Shown here: positions 264-17,833 of the stretch, in pieces
Position numbering within the stretch: position 1 is the stretch's first letter
Layout of the letters: every line of letters begins with the position of its first letter
Virus record (IMG/VR): IMGVR_UViG_3300048575_000179
Location: 1-28,800 of that record
DNA length: 28,800 bases
Reading direction: 5' to 3' (one strand)
From: a virus
Lineage: Duplodnaviria; Caudoviricetes
The notes under the pieces: generated by a model
Told to the model about the DNA's origin: nothing
Databases searched by the model: none
The model's input: the letters and a program-made list of their open reading frames with translations, nothing else
Made by a program: the position numbers and the translations under genes

Positions 264-310
264 CTCAACACTCGCCCACATCGCCTTCCCACGCAATGCG
301 CAGGCCATGG

Positions 311-338
311 AAACAAAAAACCCGGCCTAGGCCGGGTT
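311..338 (-). terminator. Rho-independent terminator closing the accessory operons
   Basis: Perfect palindrome AACCCGGCCT/AGGCCGGGTT (319-338) running into TTTTTTGTTT on the minus strand, about 30 nt after the last HTH gene. Confidence 0.85.
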
Positions 339-370
339 CTCTGCCAGCTCGGCAGAACGTGCAACGCACA

Positions 371-559
371 TCATTTTTTTTCCTGCGCCTTGAGCAAAAA
401 AAGCTCAAAGAACGCCGGGTGCATGGCGCGCCTACCGCCCTCCCAGTCCTGCCACCCGCGCAAGGTGCAGTAAATCAGCGCTGCGGCCTGGGTTTGCGTC
501 AGCCCTGCAGCGGCGCGGGCCTCGCGGATGGCGCTCGGGAATGGGGATTCGGGGATCAT
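371..559 (-). CDS. XRE-type HTH repressor, Aca10-like, copy B (62 aa)
   Basis: MIPESPFPSAIREARAAAGLTQTQAAALIYCTLRGWQDWEGGRRAMHPAFFELFLLKAQEKK. ATGA overlap at 556-559. HTH_3 pattern plus W..WE.G.R.MHP...ELFLLK, as I recall for Aca10. Last gene of its operon. Confidence 0.85.
   Translation of the reverse strand: MIPESPFPSAIREARAAAGLTQTQAAALIYCTLRGWQDWEGGRRAMHPAFFELFLLKAQEKK
383..533. repeat. Direct repeat of the HTH gene core (pairs with 1578-1728)
   Basis: Offset 1195 bp. 48 of 50 core amino acids are identical and most nucleotide differences are synonymous. Confidence 0.95.
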
Positions 560-804
560 GGATTGCGCTCCAGCCACTCCCCGGCCTCGCGGGCCAGGCG
601 CATTAGGCGCTGGGCCAGGTCATGCAACGGCACGCCACGCGCCAGCTCGTAGTCCTGGAACTCGCCCAGGGTTTCGGGCGCGACCTTGATGTCGACGAAC
701 CCGTCGCCGCGCCCCACCGTGAATTCCGCGCCGCTGATGTGGCGCAGGCGGCCATTGGGCAACCGGGACCAAGCCCTGTGCCAGTTTCGATGCCTTCCGC
801 TCAT
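556..804 (-). CDS. Hypothetical protein, operon B cargo 3 (82 aa)
   Basis: MSGRHRNWHRAWSRLPNGRLRHISGAEF...; ATGA overlaps at both ends (801-804, 556-559). Confidence 0.8.
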   Translation of the reverse strand: MSGRHRNWHRAWSRLPNGRLRHISGAEFTVGRGDGFVDIKVAPETLGEFQDYELARGVPLHDLAQRLMRLAREAGEWLERNP

Positions 805-1139
805 GGGATTTCCTGTTTTCCGTATGCATCCCGCACCCGCCCCTCCCACACCACGGGGCCGCCCAGCAGTCCAGCGATCTGCCGGGCCGTGGCCCAGGCA
901 GTGGAGCGCTCACCATGGCCCGCATCGGGCAACGAACTGCTGAACAACAAATAAGCCTCCCCCACCCACAGCGCGGCATCCAGCCGGGCCGCGTCATCTT
1001 GCGCGGCGGTGAAGGCCGCGGCGGCCTGCTGCATTGCCTCGACGCCCTCATTTGCGCGCGGATACTTAAAGACGATGGGGGAATCTTCGAGGGTGGCCGC
1101 AATGGCCGCCACCTCTTCAATGACGGCGGCGATCATCAT
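801..1139 (-). CDS. Hypothetical protein, operon B cargo 2 (112 aa)
   Basis: MMIAAVIEEVAAIAATLEDSPIVFKYP...; ATGA overlaps at both ends. Confidence 0.75.
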   Translation of the reverse strand: MMIAAVIEEVAAIAATLEDSPIVFKYPRANEGVEAMQQAAAAFTAAQDDAARLDAALWVGEAYLLFSSSLPDAGHGERSTAWATARQIAGLLGGPVVWEGRVRDAYGKQEIP

Positions 1140-1471
1140 GCGCGCTCGACGTTGAGGGCTTCGGACACATCAACACCCAGGGCCGAGGCACCCAGCGCTG
1201 CCACGTCGTGCGCAGCCCCGTCAAGAGGGACCAGGAACTCTACCTTGTCGCCCTCTGCGCCATCTTCCCAGGCGTGCCAGATCTCGATTTCTGCGGACTC
1301 AATGGCCAGCCAGTCGCGCAGGCTCGGATGGCACTCGGCGATCTGCTGCTCTGCGGCTGCGCGGTCAAAGTTGTCGCCGGATGCCATCAAGCTCCGGTTG
1401 CATGCGTCTGCTGCGGCGCGGGTGTCCACGGTCTTGACAGTGGCGACGATGGTGTATTCAGTGCGGATCAT
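1136..1471 (-). CDS. Acidic hypothetical protein, operon B cargo 1 (111 aa), candidate anti-defence protein
   Basis: MIRTEYTIVATVKTVD...; SD GAGGAG upstream of the ATG at 1471. 21 D/E versus 8 K/R. First gene after promoter B. Confidence 0.8.
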   Translation of the reverse strand: MIRTEYTIVATVKTVDTRAAADACNRSLMASGDNFDRAAAEQQIAECHPSLRDWLAIESAEIEIWHAWEDGAEGDKVEFLVPLDGAAHDVAALGASALGVDVSEALNVERA

Positions 1472-1497
1472 GATGTTTCTCCTCGGAGATCCCTCTA

Positions 1498-1561
1498 CCG
1501 GAGGGCGTCGGCGGCAATCAATTTCGATCACCATGGGGTAGATTATACACGCATTGCGTGC
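1498..1561. repeat. 64-bp promoter/leader direct repeat, copy B (pairs with 3099-3162)
   Basis: 59 of 64 identical at offset 1601 by manual alignment. Confidence 0.95.
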
Positions 1562-1569
1562 ATGATCAA
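1542..1569 (-). promoter_or_regulatory. Sigma70-type promoter B with palindromic operator
   Basis: Minus strand reads TTGATC-N16-TATAAT. The spacer holds the perfect inverted repeat CACGCA-N-TGCGTG (1548-1560), directly abutting the -10. Confidence 0.85.
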
Positions 1570-1748
1570 TCTCTTTTCTGCGCCTTGAGCAAAAAAAGCT
1601 CAAAGAATGCCGGGTGCATGGCGCGCCTACCGCCCTCCCAATCCTGCCACCCGCGCAGGGTGCAGTAGATCAGCTCGGCGGCCCGGGTTTGGGTCAGGCC
1701 TGCAGCGGCACGGGCCTCGCGGATGGCGGTTGGCGTTGGTGATGTCAT
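1566..1748 (-). CDS. XRE-type HTH repressor, Aca10-like, copy A (60 aa)
   Basis: MTSPTPTAIREARAAAGLTQTRAAELIYCTLRGWQDWEGGRRAMHPAFFELFLLKAQKRD. ATGA overlap at 1745-1748. Its stop codon lies within the -35 of promoter B. Confidence 0.85.
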   Translation of the reverse strand: MTSPTPTAIREARAAAGLTQTRAAELIYCTLRGWQDWEGGRRAMHPAFFELFLLKAQKRD

Positions 1749-2494
1749 TTGCTCTCCAGGCACTCGCATGCCTCAATATCCTCAGCTCGCATAGGGCGGC
1801 GCACCCAGCTCTGCACACCATCGTCAGAGATCAGCTCCAGCGACCAAGCGCCGCCATCGGCATCAATTGCCAGGACAATCGCGCGCCCACGCAGCACAGC
1901 AGGGGATAACTCCATCCCCATCATCGCCGCATCCGCCCGAGCAACTCTCGCAGCCTGCACAGCCAAAGCCATGGCCTTGGCCTGCTTGCCAGCCAGCATC
2001 CAAGCATTTGCCCGCATGCCCCACCCTGCAGGCTTTGTGGCCTGTGCAGCGCTGCGCAGTGCCTCGCGCGTGGCTGACGATGCTGGCCGCCCACGCTTGG
2101 CCTGTGCCATGCGGGCACGCGCCTCAGGGAGCGCAGCACGCGCACGCCCAGCAGCGGCGGCATCCACAGGGACGCCGGTACGCGCTTGCAGTAGTTGACG
2201 TGTGCCATCCGTCACACGCCCTACCCCAAGCGCCTTGCGCCACATCCACACCTTTGTGGCGCCAACACCCCACCAATAGCAAACAGCCTCCACCGACTCC
2301 ATGCGCACAGCACGCGCAAGCTCAGGCGTCAGGATCAAGGATGGCCGACCTGTTTTTTTTCGGCGCGGCCATGCGATGGGCGCAGACGTCCATCCTCCGA
2401 CCTCTACGCGCCCATCCACCTCGTCGTCCAGCCAGTCACCAACGATGCATGCAGGAGGGGTGTATGGGCCAGCAAGCAGCTCAGGCACCAGCAC
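1745..2494 (-). CDS. Hypothetical protein with HTH-like and NUMOD3-like segments, operon A cargo 4 (249 aa)
   Basis: GTG start with GGAGG upstream. ESVEAVCYWWGVGATKVWMWRKALG is HTH-like and KRGRPASSATREALRSA is NUMOD3-like. Confidence 0.7.
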   Translation of the reverse strand: MLVPELLAGPYTPPACIVGDWLDDEVDGRVEVGGWTSAPIAWPRRKKTGRPSLILTPELARAVRMESVEAVCYWWGVGATKVWMWRKALGVGRVTDGTRQLLQARTGVPVDAAAAGRARAALPEARARMAQAKRGRPASSATREALRSAAQATKPAGWGMRANAWMLAGKQAKAMALAVQAARVARADAAMMGMELSPAVLRGRAIVLAIDADGGAWSLELISDDGVQSWVRRPMRAEDIEACECLESK

Positions 2495-2714
2495 GGCCTG
2501 CAGCCTCCAGTGCAGCGCGTGCCTTGCGCTGGTCGAGCACGCTTACAGCACCAGCATTGAGCATGGCCAGCACCCCTACAGCAGAGCGACCGAGTGCGCC
2601 GATCTCCATGCCGCGCTGGATGGTGCCAAGCATCTCCCATCCTGGCGGCACAGTGTGCTGGTAGAGGCGCCAGGGGCCGCCTGGCGTGATTGTGAGACGG
2701 GCCCTGTTGGTCAT
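2481..2714 (-). CDS. Hypothetical protein, operon A cargo 3 (77 aa)
   Basis: MTNRARLTITPGGPWRLYQHTVPPGWEMLGTIQRG...; ATGA overlap at 2711-2714. Confidence 0.8.
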   Translation of the reverse strand: MTNRARLTITPGGPWRLYQHTVPPGWEMLGTIQRGMEIGALGRSAVGVLAMLNAGAVSVLDQRKARAALEAAGRAGA

Positions 2715-2884
2715 TGCAGTCGTGCCTCCGTTTCGGCGTTGCCGACATAGCCGTACAGATACCAGCCGGTGGTGTTGGTGTTTGGCATGACACCGCGGAC
2801 ATGGATCTCACCATCGCGGGTAATGCGGTACATGCGAGCGCCAAACTCGGCAACCAGTGCAGCGCGGATTTGAGCGATGGTCAT
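2711..2884 (-). CDS. Hypothetical protein, operon A cargo 2 (57 aa)
   Basis: MTIAQIRAALVAEFGARMYRITRDGEIHVRGVMPNTNTTGWYLYGYVGNAETEARLQ. TAATG overlap with the upstream gene and a GGAGG SD. Confidence 0.8.
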   Translation of the reverse strand: MTIAQIRAALVAEFGARMYRITRDGEIHVRGVMPNTNTTGWYLYGYVGNAETEARLQ

Positions 2885-3075
2885 TAGATGGCCTCCACTT
2901 GTGCCTTGGCCCAGCCCTTGCACCATCCCATACCGTAAGCCTGGGTGCGGGCATTGAACTTGTCCAGCATGGCTTGCGTGATGATCCATGCCTTGCGTTG
3001 CGCGTCCCACTTGCCGCCTGCAGCCTTGATGGACTCGCGGATTTCGTAGGCGTTGGTTACTGCGTAGTTGGTCAT
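2884..3075 (-). CDS. Hypothetical protein, operon A cargo 1 (63 aa), DUF5710-like motif
   Basis: MTNYAVTNAYEIRESIKAAGGKWDAQRKAW...; AAGGAAG SD. The K..G.kWd...K.W pattern recalls DUF5710. Confidence 0.75.
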   Translation of the reverse strand: MTNYAVTNAYEIRESIKAAGGKWDAQRKAWIITQAMLDKFNARTQAYGMGWCKGWAKAQVEAI

Positions 3076-3098
3076 TTTTTCTTCCTTGCCCCTCATTG

Positions 3099-3162
3099 CC
3101 GGGAGGCGCCGGTGGCAATCAATCTCGATCACCATGGGGTAGATTATACACGCATTGCGTGC
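3099..3162. repeat. 64-bp promoter/leader direct repeat, copy A
   Basis: Matches 1498-1561 with 5 mismatches. Confidence 0.95.
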
Positions 3163-3170
3163 GTTTACAT
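3143..3170 (-). promoter_or_regulatory. Promoter A with the same palindromic operator
   Basis: TATAAT at 3148-3143 and operator at 3149-3161. The -35 is a weaker match (ATGTAA). Begins immediately after the Rz stop codon. Confidence 0.8.
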
Positions 3171-13183: not shown

Positions 13184-16100
13184 TTAGCGCCCCGTCTTCC
13201 ATTTCGACATTTCGAGGCCGCGCAGGAAGCGCTCGATGGCAGCGGCGCCGCTGTCGTCGGTGGCGATGGTTTCGCGCTCGCGCTCGCCCAGGCTCAGGAC
13301 AAGGTTCACCTTGCGCACGGATGCGGCACCAGCGCTGCCACCATCGCCGCCCGTGCCGGGGCTGCCCGCCGCCCTGTCACCGCCCGCTTCCGCGCCCGTG
13401 GCTGGCTGCGTGCTCTGCGCCACGGCCACCACGGCGGCGGCCACGTCCTGCATGGCCTTGAGCAGTGCCTCTTCGCGCTCACGCTGGGCCGCCGCGCTGG
13501 CGTCTTCGCGCTCGCGCTCGATCTGCACGCGCGCCTGGCGCTGCTGCTCGGCTTCATCCAGTTCCCGCAGGCGCTTCTGGTGTGCCTCCTGGGCGGCTTT
13601 CTCGCGCGCCGCCGTGGCCTTGTCTTCGGCGGCGCGCTCGTCGGCCAGGCGCTTGACGCGGGCTGCTGCGGCGGCCTCTGCGCGCTCGGCGTCCAGGCGG
13701 GCCTGTTCGTCGGCTTGCTTTTGCTGCGCAGCCAGCACGGCGGCGCGCTGGCGCTCCTGCGCGGTCAGCTCGGCCTGGCTGCGGTTGCCCGGCTTGTCCT
13801 GCTGTGCGGCCTCGCGCGCCTGGCGCTGCTGCTCCTGCTGCTGCGCGGCGGCCGCTGCGGCGGCGCGCTCTTGCGCTTCGCGGGCCTTGCGGGCGGCCTC
13901 GGCGCGGGCGGCGCGCTCGTCTTCGGCCTTGCGGCGCGCGGCCAGCGCTTCGGCGGCGGCGGCCTCGCGCGCCTGGCGGGCAGCCTCGGCATCGTCCAGG
14001 GCCTTTTTTTGCGCATCGAGGCGCTCCTTGGCGGCCTTGTCCTCTGCGGCGCGGCGCTGTTTGAGGGCCTCGTCGTCGGCCTTCTGGCGCGCGCGCAGGG
14101 CGTCTTCGGCGGCCTGGCGCTCGGCCTCTGCGGCTTCCTTTATTGCGGCCTGGCGCGCGCTGGCCTCGGTGTCGATCTGGCCCATACGCTCGCTGTGGGT
14201 CTGCGTGTTCTGTTCGCGCTCCGCCTGGGCCCGCTCGTCTTCTTCTTTCTTGCGCTTGTCCCGCTCCTTCTCATGGATCTGACCGAGCAACGCGAGCATT
14301 TCCTTTTGCTTGGCGATTTCCTTGTCCAGCTCGGCCAGCTTGGCGTTGTCTTTCCAGATGCGCGCACGCTCCATTTCGAGCTGCAGGCGCTGCAGTTCCA
14401 GCTCGATCTGGTTGCGCTCGCGCTCGGCCTTCGCGGCGGCGATCTCTTCCTCGGTGCCGTCGATTTCGAGCAGGCGCAGGCGCAGATCATCAAGCGCGCG
14501 GTCTCTGCCCTGGGTTGAGTCTTGGAGCTGCTGCTGCGTGGCGTCGATGCGCTCAAGCGCAGAGACCATCTCATTTGCGGCGCCCGACATGCGTACGAAC
14601 TGCGCCTCTGTCACAATGGCGTAGTCGGCTTGCTCCCACATGGCTTTTGTGACGGCGGCCGCGTACTTGCTCGCGGCGTTTTCAGCCGTGAACCACATGG
14701 CGACAAGAGAGTCTGCGGACTGGGTTGCTTGTTCCGCCGCTTTTTCAGTGTCCCTGCCTGCATCCTTTGCCGCGTCACCGACGTCTTTTGCAGCGCCACC
14801 CGCCTCTTCCATTTCCATGCGCAGGTGCCGCACGGATTCCGCCGATTCCCCCATGCTCTTGATGACCGCCTTGCCGGCGCCATCGACCTCCACCTTGAAG
14901 CCATGGGACGCGGCTTGTGCACTGATGGTTGCACTTGCCACGCCATTGTTCGCCGCGATGGCCGCCTCAGCCATCGCACGCCATGCCTCATGAATTTCAC
15001 GCGGAGACGCCGTACCGCTTGCACGGATGACTTCAAACGCCTGTGTTGCCTTCTGGGCCAACGATGCCAGCTCAGCCTGCGGCTTCACGCCGAGCTGCAC
15101 CAGGGCTTCACGAACGGAGTTGATTCCAGGCTTCGCGGCGTCAAGCGCGGCCGCAAGCTCCTGCGCTTTAACCTTGGCCTGATCGAGGAGGCTGTCGGCC
15201 ATCTTCGTGCCGAGTTCCTTGCGCAGGGCGTTGATGCGCGCAATGACTGCATCGATTTCAGCCTGATTCTTCGCGCCATCAAGCATCTTCGACAGCGCCT
15301 GGGCGACGACAGTGCCCGTATCAACGCCTGCTGCCCTCAACTGCGGCAAAGACTGGATCAGCACGCGCATGTCTGCATCGGCCCGCCTGAATGCCTCGCC
15401 AACCCTGCTAGCAGACATGACGACATCGACGCCAAGGCTCTGGGCTGCCTTCAGGGCAATCAGCTCGAGACCATGCTCCAGTTCCTTGCCCTTCACGCCA
15501 GCCTGGTTCATGGCAAGGATGAACTCCTGGCGAAAGCGCGCAAGCTCTTCGCCGCTGAGCTTGCTGATGGCTTCGGGCAACTCCTGGCGCAGGATCTTTT
15601 CAAGATCAGCGCCCTTCTTCTTGGCTTCCTCGATCTGCGCGGCAAGCCCTCTCAGCAAACCCGCCTTCGGGGATGGCTCCTGGGTGATCTTGATGATTTC
15701 CTGCAGCAGCGGCAGGACGCTGCCCGCCTCCTTCGCCGCCGCACCAAGCGCAACAGCGCCCGCGGCACCCGCCTGCTGCATGGAAGCGCCCGCCGCGCCG
15801 GCCGCCGCAGCGACTGCACCGAGCTGCGCTCCAGCGGCATCTGCCGCAGTGCCGACCTTGACAGGGGCCCGCTCTGCATCGCGCATCATTTCCTGGATCT
15901 GCGCCCGGACCTTGGCATTGCGCTCTTCGAACCGCTGGTAAGCGGCATCGACGGTATCGCTGGTGAACACGGCTGCTGCCGCTTCCTTGGCCAGGCGCAG
16001 GCTGCTGACAACCGTCTCGAAGTACCCGACGAGCAGCACGCCGAACTGCCGCGCCAGGGTAGAGTTCTCGCGCAGCATCTCCCCGATCTGGTAGCCGATT

Positions 16101-17833
16101 TCGAATCCGGTCACGCCAACAGCAATATTGATGGTGCGCGGCACCTTCGCGATGCTGGCCGCGAGCAAGTTGGTGGCCCCCGCCGCCAGGGCCGCCTCGG
16201 CGGCATAGGCCCGCAAAGCAGCCGCGCCCTGCACCGCAAGGCTTGCGGTAAGGGCGGCACCCGCAACCGCAGCAATGCGCGCAAGCGTGTCGAGGTTCCC
16301 GGCAAGCGCGTTGATGCCGTTGGCGACATAGCCGGTCACGTTGCTGCTCTTGTCCATCTCGCCGACGAACAGCATCCATTGCGTCTGCAAATTGGTCAAT
16401 GCGCGGCCCACGGTAGCAGGCAACTGGCTGAACTCGGCCTCCAGGGTGGCGCGCTGGTTCTGCAGTGCTCCGATGACGACCTTGGTTGTCAACTGGCCTT
16501 CATTTGCCATCTTGCGCAACTCACCCGTGGTGACGCCCAGGCCAGCAGCCAGAGCCTGCGCAAGGCGTGGCGCCTGCTCCATCACGCTATTGAATTCTTC
16601 GCCGCGCAGCACGCCGGACTGCAGGCCCTGGATCAACTGCGTGATGGCGGCATCCGCGGATGCCGCACTCCCGCCTGAAAGCTGCACAGCCTGATTGATG
16701 GACTTCGTGAGCGCAAGCGCATCGGACTGCGCAAGGTTGAATTCCTTGCCGGCCTGAGAGATTCGGGTGAACAGCGTCCCAGTCCCCTCCAGGGCACTGT
16801 GCGTTTCGACGGCAACACGTTTGATGCCCGCGAATGCACGCTCGAACCCTTCGCCCTCCCCCGTGGCGAGCTTCACGCGCGCGGACAGGTTGAGGAACGC
16901 ATCAGCAGTATCTGTAACATCGCGCAGCAGGCCTGCGGCAAAACCGCCACCCAGGGCAAGGGTGGCGATGTTCTGGATGTTCTGCAGCTGCGTGCTGATC
17001 GAATTCATTCCTTCGCGGAATGTCTTGTTCGTCTTCTCCTGCGCAGCGCCCGCCTGCTGGGTGGCCTGCGTAAGCTTGGCATAGGCAGGGAGGATCTGCA
17101 GGGCCTCCGCACGCGCGGCGTCCAGCGCGCCAGCCAGGTTGCGCTCCGCCTGGGCCAGGTTCGCGGCATCAATGCCTGCGGCGCGCAAACGCTCACGCCC
17201 GGCCTCCATAGCGGTGTTCGCATCCATCTGAGCACCGCGCACGCGGGCCAGGGCCGTGGTGCTGGCCTCATACTGAGCGGAGAGTGCGTTCTGCGCCTGC
17301 TGCGCCGACTTGGTCTGGGTTTCTGCCGACTTGAGCGCAGCACGCTCTTGAGCAATCTGTGCCGTCAGGCGCTGGGCATCCTCCTGCAGTTGCACCTTGC
17401 GCTGCCGGTACTCATCAGTGGACCGCGCAACGCCGATGGTTTGCTGGTTCAGGTCGCGCAGTGCCTGGCGTTGCTGGTCCAGGCTGGAGCGCGCACCCTC
17501 CAGCGCGGCTCTGGCACGGGCTTCCGCCGCCGCAAAGCCCTGGGTTCTTTCCGCCGATTGGGCAAGCTGGACGCCGAGCTGAGACGCTGCATGCTGGGCC
17601 TCGAGCAGCTCGATGCCGAGGGCATCGGCCTCGTTCTTGATGGCGCGAAACCCCTCTACGGCGCCCTGTTTTGCTCCCAGGGCCTGGATTGCATCAGCAG
17701 CACCAAGGGCGTTCTTGCGCAAATCACCGTCGAGTGCTTCACCAAGATCTCGCAGGTGCTTCTCAAGCGACTGCACCGATGCATCGCCGGTGACGGCGGC
17801 CTCGATGTCATACTTGATCTTCGGATCTGTCAT
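13184..17833 (-). CDS. Tail tape measure protein (1549 aa)
   Basis: Ala-rich helical protein with the tape_meas motif QL.QGL.SGVLRGEEFNSVMEQAPRLAQALA..LGVT.GELRKMA.EGQLT. Confidence 0.95.
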   Translation of the reverse strand: MTDPKIKYDIEAAVTGDASVQSLEKHLRDLGEALDGDLRKNALGAADAIQALGAKQGAVEGFRAIKNEADALGIELLEAQHAASQLGVQLAQSAERTQGFAAAEARARAALEGARSSLDQQRQALRDLNQQTIGVARSTDEYRQRKVQLQEDAQRLTAQIAQERAALKSAETQTKSAQQAQNALSAQYEASTTALARVRGAQMDANTAMEAGRERLRAAGIDAANLAQAERNLAGALDAARAEALQILPAYAKLTQATQQAGAAQEKTNKTFREGMNSISTQLQNIQNIATLALGGGFAAGLLRDVTDTADAFLNLSARVKLATGEGEGFERAFAGIKRVAVETHSALEGTGTLFTRISQAGKEFNLAQSDALALTKSINQAVQLSGGSAASADAAITQLIQGLQSGVLRGEEFNSVMEQAPRLAQALAAGLGVTTGELRKMANEGQLTTKVVIGALQNQRATLEAEFSQLPATVGRALTNLQTQWMLFVGEMDKSSNVTGYVANGINALAGNLDTLARIAAVAGAALTASLAVQGAAALRAYAAEAALAAGATNLLAASIAKVPRTINIAVGVTGFEIGYQIGEMLRENSTLARQFGVLLVGYFETVVSSLRLAKEAAAAVFTSDTVDAAYQRFEERNAKVRAQIQEMMRDAERAPVKVGTAADAAGAQLGAVAAAAGAAGASMQQAGAAGAVALGAAAKEAGSVLPLLQEIIKITQEPSPKAGLLRGLAAQIEEAKKKGADLEKILRQELPEAISKLSGEELARFRQEFILAMNQAGVKGKELEHGLELIALKAAQSLGVDVVMSASRVGEAFRRADADMRVLIQSLPQLRAAGVDTGTVVAQALSKMLDGAKNQAEIDAVIARINALRKELGTKMADSLLDQAKVKAQELAAALDAAKPGINSVREALVQLGVKPQAELASLAQKATQAFEVIRASGTASPREIHEAWRAMAEAAIAANNGVASATISAQAASHGFKVEVDGAGKAVIKSMGESAESVRHLRMEMEEAGGAAKDVGDAAKDAGRDTEKAAEQATQSADSLVAMWFTAENAASKYAAAVTKAMWEQADYAIVTEAQFVRMSGAANEMVSALERIDATQQQLQDSTQGRDRALDDLRLRLLEIDGTEEEIAAAKAERERNQIELELQRLQLEMERARIWKDNAKLAELDKEIAKQKEMLALLGQIHEKERDKRKKEEDERAQAEREQNTQTHSERMGQIDTEASARQAAIKEAAEAERQAAEDALRARQKADDEALKQRRAAEDKAAKERLDAQKKALDDAEAARQAREAAAAEALAARRKAEDERAARAEAARKAREAQERAAAAAAAQQQEQQRQAREAAQQDKPGNRSQAELTAQERQRAAVLAAQQKQADEQARLDAERAEAAAAARVKRLADERAAEDKATAAREKAAQEAHQKRLRELDEAEQQRQARVQIEREREDASAAAQREREEALLKAMQDVAAAVVAVAQSTQPATGAEAGGDRAAGSPGTGGDGGSAGAASVRKVNLVLSLGERERETIATDDSGAAAIERFLRGLEMSKWKTGR

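Follow-up and report, generated by a model that had tools for sequence, protein, structure and literature searches.

The question raised by this locus is whether two short tandem operons, lying downstream of the lysis genes of a Caudoviricetes phage (IMG/VR record IMGVR_UViG_3300048575_000179), form an island devoted to the inhibition of host defences. The window analysed here is the entire 28.8-kb virus record. With a probability that we put at about 80%, the answer is that they do, and that the locus is a phage counter-defence island made of two tandem operons, each ending with a gene of the Aca10 (anti-CRISPR-associated) family and one of them carrying a homologue of the C-terminal domain of the anti-CRISPR (Acr) protein AcrIF25.

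Both operons are encoded on the minus strand, with the endolysin and Rz-like spanin genes directly upstream, and each is composed of three or four cargo genes followed by a helix-turn-helix (HTH) gene. Their components are as follows.

3143..3170, minus strand: promoter A, with TATAAT at 3143-3148, the operator palindrome at 3149-3161 and a weak -35 (missed by the consensus promoter scan)
2884..3075, minus strand: A1, 63 aa, first gene of operon A
2711..2884, minus strand: A2, 57 aa
2481..2714, minus strand: A3, 77 aa
1745..2494, minus strand: A4, 249 aa
1566..1748, minus strand: HTH copy A, predicted Aca10-family repressor, 60 aa, Pfam HTH_31
1542..1569, minus strand: promoter B, TTGATC-16-TATAAT, with the operator at 1548-1560
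1136..1471, minus strand: B1, 111 aa, first gene of operon B
801..1139, minus strand: B2, 112 aa, stand-alone homologue of the AcrIF25 C-terminal domain
556..804, minus strand: B3, 82 aa
371..559, minus strand: HTH copy B, predicted Aca10-family repressor, 62 aa, matching PDB 7XI5

The anatomy given in the preliminary description, namely two tandem operons after the lysis cassette with TATAAT next to CACGCA-N-TGCGTG, overlapping genes and a terminal HTH gene, was found in every detail. The window contains two perfect copies of the palindrome (1548-1560 and 3149-3161), each adjoined by TATAAT, against 0.003 matches per window in 300 shuffles, and all gene junctions within the operons overlap, by 1-14 nt. 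Between the two operons, the promoter and leader blocks agree at 92% of positions over 64 nt and the DNA of the HTH genes at 89% over 179 nt, whereas the cargo genes in the middle are unrelated between operons. Because the ends are so alike and the middles are not, the likely origin of the twin layout is a unit running from promoter and leader to aca that was duplicated, or captured serially, together with cargo exchange. The stop codon of HTH copy A overlaps the -35 of promoter B, so that the two operons abut without a gap.

The regulator is the first of two homologies on which the reading is anchored. HTH copy B matched PDB 7XI5 over residues 4-59 without gaps (E 5.6e-17), with 32 of 56 positions identical (57%, counted by hand), and Pfam HTH_31 scored above its cut-off in both copies. 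This structure is Aca10 (PMC9410881), so the resemblance to Aca10 put forward earlier is borne out. Residues Q22, Q37 and R44, which are important for DNA binding by Aca10 (PMC9410881), are retained in the phage HTH, as is R34; differences are seen at G49, a dimer position that becomes Ala and thus remains small, and at Q38, which becomes Asp. The published Aca10 operator is a palindrome of 19-21 bp with a one-base centre located in the promoter spacer (PMC9410881). That of the phage, a 13-bp palindrome in the -35/-10 spacer, agrees in position and symmetry and, when aligned on the centre, has TGnGnGTAT in common with Aca10 IR2, its right half-site being identical at 7 of 10 positions. Operators were further compared across 16 homologue loci, in 15 of which the HTH motif was found by script. 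Among these 15, the five with the closest recognition helix (L001, L002, L004, L032 and L051) have the same or a near-identical palindrome, three with other recognition helices (L011, L014 and L018) have other palindromes, and five gave no promoter call. Judged on sequence, both HTH proteins are members of the Aca10 family with a variant operator and likely bind the shared palindrome and repress both promoters. The phage thereby offers a natural variant of the Aca10 operator with matching changes in the recognition helix. Last-gene position in an operon holding an acr homologue applies to copy B, through B2; operon A holds no named acr gene.

The closest published counterpart is the acrIC7-acrIC6-aca10 operon of Pseudomonas citronellolis (PMC9410881, PMC7913775), which likewise has a terminal Aca10 (57% identity), an odd-spaced palindrome in the -35/-10 spacer and short cargo genes. 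Its operator reads ACGCTCA-T-TGAGCGT, in contrast to the phage core CACGCA-N-TGCGTG, and the phage differs further in having two complete tandem operons, each with its own aca, a likely Comamonas-group host and distinct cargo including the homologue of a type I-F inhibitor. Searches for Aca10 in genome contigs and plasmids confirmed none, and four Ralstonia phage records matched. A scan with the operator pattern returned 119 loci, mostly of gut phages, 16 of which gave a tblastn match to the phage HTH at E 0.001; the neighbouring genes that were scanned included no named Acr. As a separate observation, many gut phage contigs (L019-L137) have the same palindrome in promoters close to consensus, followed by short genes and by divergent HTH genes (for instance in L038, L047 and L085); these loci are possibly a distant Aca10-like regulon with candidate cargo.

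The second homology concerns B2. This protein aligns with residues 49-157 of AcrIF25 (PDB 8JDH) at E 4.3e-25 with ca. 53 of 105 positions identical (ca. 50%, manual count), and a profile of its family (41 members) matches AcrIF25 at E 7.5e-34. Relative to 8JDH, B2 starts at residue ca. 48, has a 4-residue deletion and lacks the N-terminal ribbon-helix-helix (RHH) domain. It is, from these alignments, a stand-alone homologue of the AcrIF25 C-terminal domain, i.e. of the part that binds Cas7 and disassembles the type I-F Cascade (review PMC13131331), the N-terminal RHH having been described as non-essential (PMC13551039). The short form also appears to be the common and conserved one, since 43 of 50 B2 homologues have at most 125 aa (search range 61-196 aa) and many columns are invariant. 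B2 is predicted to strip Cas7 from the type I-F complex of the host. AcrIF25 (PDB 8JDH, 8JDI) has an unusual mechanism of inhibition by disassembly; with ca. 50% identity across the Cas7-binding domain, B2 adds a natural minimal form of 112 aa that, unlike AcrIF25, has no RHH domain, carries the 4-residue deletion and is predicted to stand alone under Aca10 control. The suggestion that the seven cargo genes were all new does not hold for B2, the identity of which speaks for type I-F in place of type I-C systems. As an acr island the locus stands, through Aca10, the AcrIF25 homologue and the AcrIF9 and Aca1 neighbours of cargo homologues described below.

Phage genes give some indication of the host. 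The best phage matches of the large terminase are Pseudomonas phages, at ca. 45% identity, and the endolysin reaches 74-76% protein identity with prophage endolysins in the genus holding Comamonas terrae, for which reason a Comamonas-group host seems likely. Csy3, the Cas7 of type I-F, was found in 18 of 77 genomes of that genus, and 933 unique spacers were collected from the stretches around these 18 loci. Two spacers match the window with 5 mismatches, a level that three shuffles did not reach, and at up to 8 mismatches there are 8 matches as compared to 2, 2 and 6 in the shuffles. Five of these 8 best matches have CC immediately 5', which is the protospacer adjacent motif of type I-F. These data suggest that type I-F systems of the Comamonas terrae genus target relatives of the phage. 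The seven cargo or HTH queries gave no match in the 21 Comamonas-group prophage stretches examined, which had short flanks.

For the cargo other than B2, database names were of little help. None of the seven proteins received a name from Pfam, PHROGs, NCBIfam or PADLOC, but Pfam and NCBIfam also missed an AcrIF9 homologue used as a control, so that the lack of names was not taken as a sign of novelty. Sequence searches of the PDB with A2, A3, A4, B1 and B3 gave no meaningful match, a result that Acr proteins without a solved structure would escape; the rows for B3 were designed helical repeats only. A1 gave a weak match to Pfam DUF5710 (E 1.6e-4, below the cut-off). Gene neighbourhoods are more informative. 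A homologue locus, L152, carries an AcrIF9 homologue (E 6e-11) followed by homologues of B2, A3 and A4 behind one promoter; in L156 an Aca1 homologue (E 1e-20) is followed by homologues of A3 and A4; and L001, the one locus with an A1 homologue, shows the order A1-A2-A3-aca10 after lysis genes and near an Aca2/YdiL-like gene. Homologues of A2 occur at 9 viral loci, and in L148 and L018 a B3 homologue is immediately followed by an HTH gene.

To put figures on this, loci were counted as having a marker when any of eight HTH marker proteins had a match on the same strand within 1.5 kb, four duplicate loci and an unpublished one being dropped. The marker was present in 1/1 loci for A1, 17/24 for A3, 1/2 for B2 and 2/2 for B3, with no locus for B1; near-duplicates remain among these loci, several of those lacking a marker stop at the end of a contig, the cases of L001 and L018 are circular because the HTH itself served to retrieve them, and three of the eight markers are not verified Aca families.

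A3 belongs to a large family of 571 clusters (50% identity) at E 0.001, the neighbours of which include Aca1, Aca10, KorA-like and other HTH genes as well as AcrIF9 and AcrIF25 homologues. Its members usually adjoin an HTH or RHH regulator or are fused to one. Among the best 150 of the 571, 64 exceed 100 aa, and ca. 24 of the listed ones among these have an RHH-like tail at their end as judged by eye; a Pfam HTH was found in 2 of 30 relatives scanned. Its predicted structure is a beta-sheet with a C-terminal helix, for which no fold match was found, the ESM Atlas giving nothing usable. A3 is the strongest new Acr candidate, although the chances that it is a real inhibitor fall slightly below even.

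B1 is acidic, with an isoelectric point (pI) of 4.3, and four of its nine homologues carry an N-terminal module that, in the one pair compared, is identical at 21 of 29 positions to that of a long AcrIF25 homologue. The ESM Atlas again gave nothing usable for B1 and its model is of low confidence. In one relative (P0198) the C-terminal ca. 45 residues of B1 are fused to a different N-terminal domain, which makes B1 itself a mosaic. A short N-terminal RHH-like module also recurs in fusions with cargo families that are unrelated to one another, among them B1 and B2 (P0192, P0193, P0197, P0199, P0162, P0167, L255:2378-2821 and L006), and resembles a portable autoregulator. Two further sets of genes were encountered in the course of these comparisons: related genes of ca. 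70 aa, AcrIF9-like by eye, that lead operons with A4, A3 or Aca10 homologues (L153:3484-3699, L211:2491-2703 and L008:4529-4738), and a 124-aa gene before the Aca2/YdiL-like gene of L001 (L001:2724-3565), a phage whose lysis genes are surrounded by three or more operons of this kind. This last product presumably resembles the C-terminal part of AcrIC6.

A4 has 124 homologues, which share an N-terminal region of ca. 170 aa. The model of this region (predicted local distance difference test, pLDDT, 90) comprises a small beta domain together with an HTH and additional helices; Foldseek returned no match at E 0.001 or better, and the sole outcome of a wide structure search was an alignment of residues 49-91 with the DNA-binding domain of GcrA (Z 3.7). 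From this model A4 is likely a DNA-binding protein. It may be likened in concept to the CasPRs, DNA-binding anti-CRISPRs described in bioRxiv 10.64898/2026.02.23.707548, in being a DNA-binding protein within an acr operon; CasPRs combine CapR and AP2 domains and come from Bacillota, and A4 matched neither domain in Pfam. Binding to RNA polymerase was considered and set aside, the SH3/Tudor-like Foldseek rows being too weak (E above 1). Three A4-like genes (L160-L162) lie in one planctomycete genome with no aca marker near, and relatives elsewhere have Myb-like repeats.

If the favoured reading is right, both unrepressed promoters would fire upon phage entry and give a burst of cargo protein, after which Aca10 dimers from either near-identical copy would occupy the -35/-10 spacers and shut both promoters. 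B2 would disable the type I-F Cascade by dismantling it, other CRISPR or defence systems would be inhibited by A3 and B1 and, with less certainty, by A1, A2 and B3, and A4 would act through DNA binding. The six other cargo genes likely include new counter-defence genes, a role suggested by gene neighbourhoods, fusion partners and the acidity of B1, and the resulting ranking of candidates, anchored by the two verified homologies, is A3, B1, then B3, A2, A1 and A4.

Several points weigh against this interpretation. Activity and binding are deduced from anatomy, homology and neighbourhoods, and the host from relatedness. A perfect match to the window is absent among the 933 spacers, and the excess at up to 8 mismatches is small. 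Of the cargo, B2 alone resembles a named inhibitor, the other six having no match to one in the libraries searched. Five cargo proteins have a basic pI (8.2-11.5), in contrast to most Acr proteins of type I-C (PMC7913775). The HTH marker lies near A2 in 6/11 loci, the others including runs of short genes where no aca was seen, and near A4 in 8/23; A4 homologues also occur away from aca genes, with several copies in one planctomycete genome, and for this reason A4 is the weakest Acr candidate. Finally, aca-like genes have also been found without acr genes (PMC9410906).

The most serious competitor, which we consider possible yet clearly the poorer bet, takes B2 as the sole real anti-CRISPR and the other six genes as early accessory or selfish genes riding a strong autoregulated promoter. 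It would fit with no family or PDB sequence match naming A1-A4, B1 or B3 and with A4 looking like a DNA-binding mosaic of scattered distribution with Myb-like tails in its relatives. The blanks in Pfam and NCBIfam say little, however, given the missed control, and the proximity of A3 to HTH markers in most of its loci, its frequent fusion to RHH- or HTH-like tails and the module that B1 relatives share with long AcrIF25 homologues all argue for a wider set of inhibitors. B2 itself could have drifted, losing inhibition of the type I-F Cascade or turning to another Cas7-family complex: the ca. 50% identity, the deletion and the absent N-terminal domain leave room for this, and Acr homologues can lose or switch activity, as with AcrIC7 (PMC7913775). 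The prevalence of the short form among its homologues, the many invariant columns and the presence of type I-F in the likely host group make such drift improbable.

Far less credible is a third explanation in which the units are toxin-antitoxin or superinfection-exclusion modules and the HTH a HigA/MqsA-like antitoxin-repressor. Aca10 does resemble HigA2 (PMC9410906) and NCBIfam gave matches to antitoxin HTHs, weak and far below the cut-off, but the match to Aca10 is much stronger, and interchangeable cargo before the same HTH, no toxin family in the cargo and an AcrIF25 homologue are at odds with it. The interpretation as a counter-defence island is thus retained. We regard this as a real acr-aca10 island, though not a wholly new kind, because multi-operon Aca control is known, as is unannotated cargo (both in PMC13551039), and B2 falls in a known family. 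The Aca-regulated multi-operon anti-defence clusters of that paper share with it several operons under one operator type, mostly unannotated cargo and a structured 5' untranslated region; unlike in those described there, the aca gene itself is duplicated in the phage. The value of the island lies in its inhibitor candidates, A3 first, and in its leader motif.

The leaders of both operons have a hairpin at the likely start followed by a GC-rich stem-loop just before the Shine-Dalgarno (SD) sequence.

3114..3133, minus strand: leader hairpin 1 of operon A (predicted), 7 bp including two G-U pairs
3088..3112, minus strand: conserved leader motif of operon A, before the SD, a stem-loop and possibly an H-type pseudoknot
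1491..1532, minus strand: leader of operon B, with hairpin 1 (1513-1532) and the conserved motif (1491-1511)

Leaders arranged in the same way stand before the AcrIF9 operon and before operons with other HTH types at their end, and Rfam gave no match near the gathering score. An alignment was made of 28 leaders, which were picked by motif and not controlled for kinship, leaving out unlike rows (L043, L148 and L166) and near-duplicates (L207 and L209). Pairing of the loop with upstream bases, i.e. an H-type pseudoknot, is possible in all 28. A pairing score of at least 7 is reached by 22 of 28 leaders as compared to 15.5% of shuffles, and native pairing exceeds that with swapped partners (3.66 versus 3.23, standard deviation 0.12; 2 of 5000). 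The pseudoknot helix pairs in 85.5% of alignment cells and its covariation score was reached by 0 of 500 shuffles, but a shift of the partners by a single column left almost as many double changes (17 versus 18). The stem-loop is well supported and the pseudoknot no more than suggested. Since the leader is unlike Comamonas-group type I-F repeats by eye, we did not retain the idea of a solitary-repeat RNA anti-CRISPR.

An aca10 RNA motif has been predicted, for which no Aca10 binding was seen (PMC13551039), and the aca10 leader probe in Table S6 of that paper contains the same leader motif. The phage motif differs from that one in also standing before other HTH types and in being drawable as a pseudoknot, a word absent from the main text of PMC13551039. 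A pseudoknot that is real and independent of Aca would explain the published lack of binding, and is a tentative proposal that we hold less likely than its contrary. In the favoured reading, leader RNA likely tunes translation of the first gene whichever Aca ends the operon; the pseudoknot, if real, would drive translation, or set its timing, in acr operons that belong to several Aca families. If the motif works without Aca, it would be a new marker for anti-defence operons, whatever their regulator. Equally doubtful is the fuller proposal that A3 founds a large unnamed counter-defence family and that, in addition, at least one of two things is true: B1 is a second new acidic inhibitor, or the Aca-independent pseudoknot exists.

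Two features lie beyond operon B.

314..343, minus strand: likely intrinsic terminator of operon B, an inverted repeat and T-run, missed by the terminator scan
290..302, strand unassigned: third operator-like site, imperfect (one mismatch), beyond the terminator

No matching promoter was seen beside the latter site. An AT-rich imperfect inverted repeat occurs at 200-260, and the record begins within a short plus-strand open reading frame (ORF; 1-81), which we take to encode a small conserved Burkholderiales protein; the start of the window may thus be near a prophage boundary. Finally, a 1549-aa ORF at 13184-17833, with extreme strand bias (AT skew of -0.72 at 13.5-14 kb), is probably a tape measure gene with repeats.

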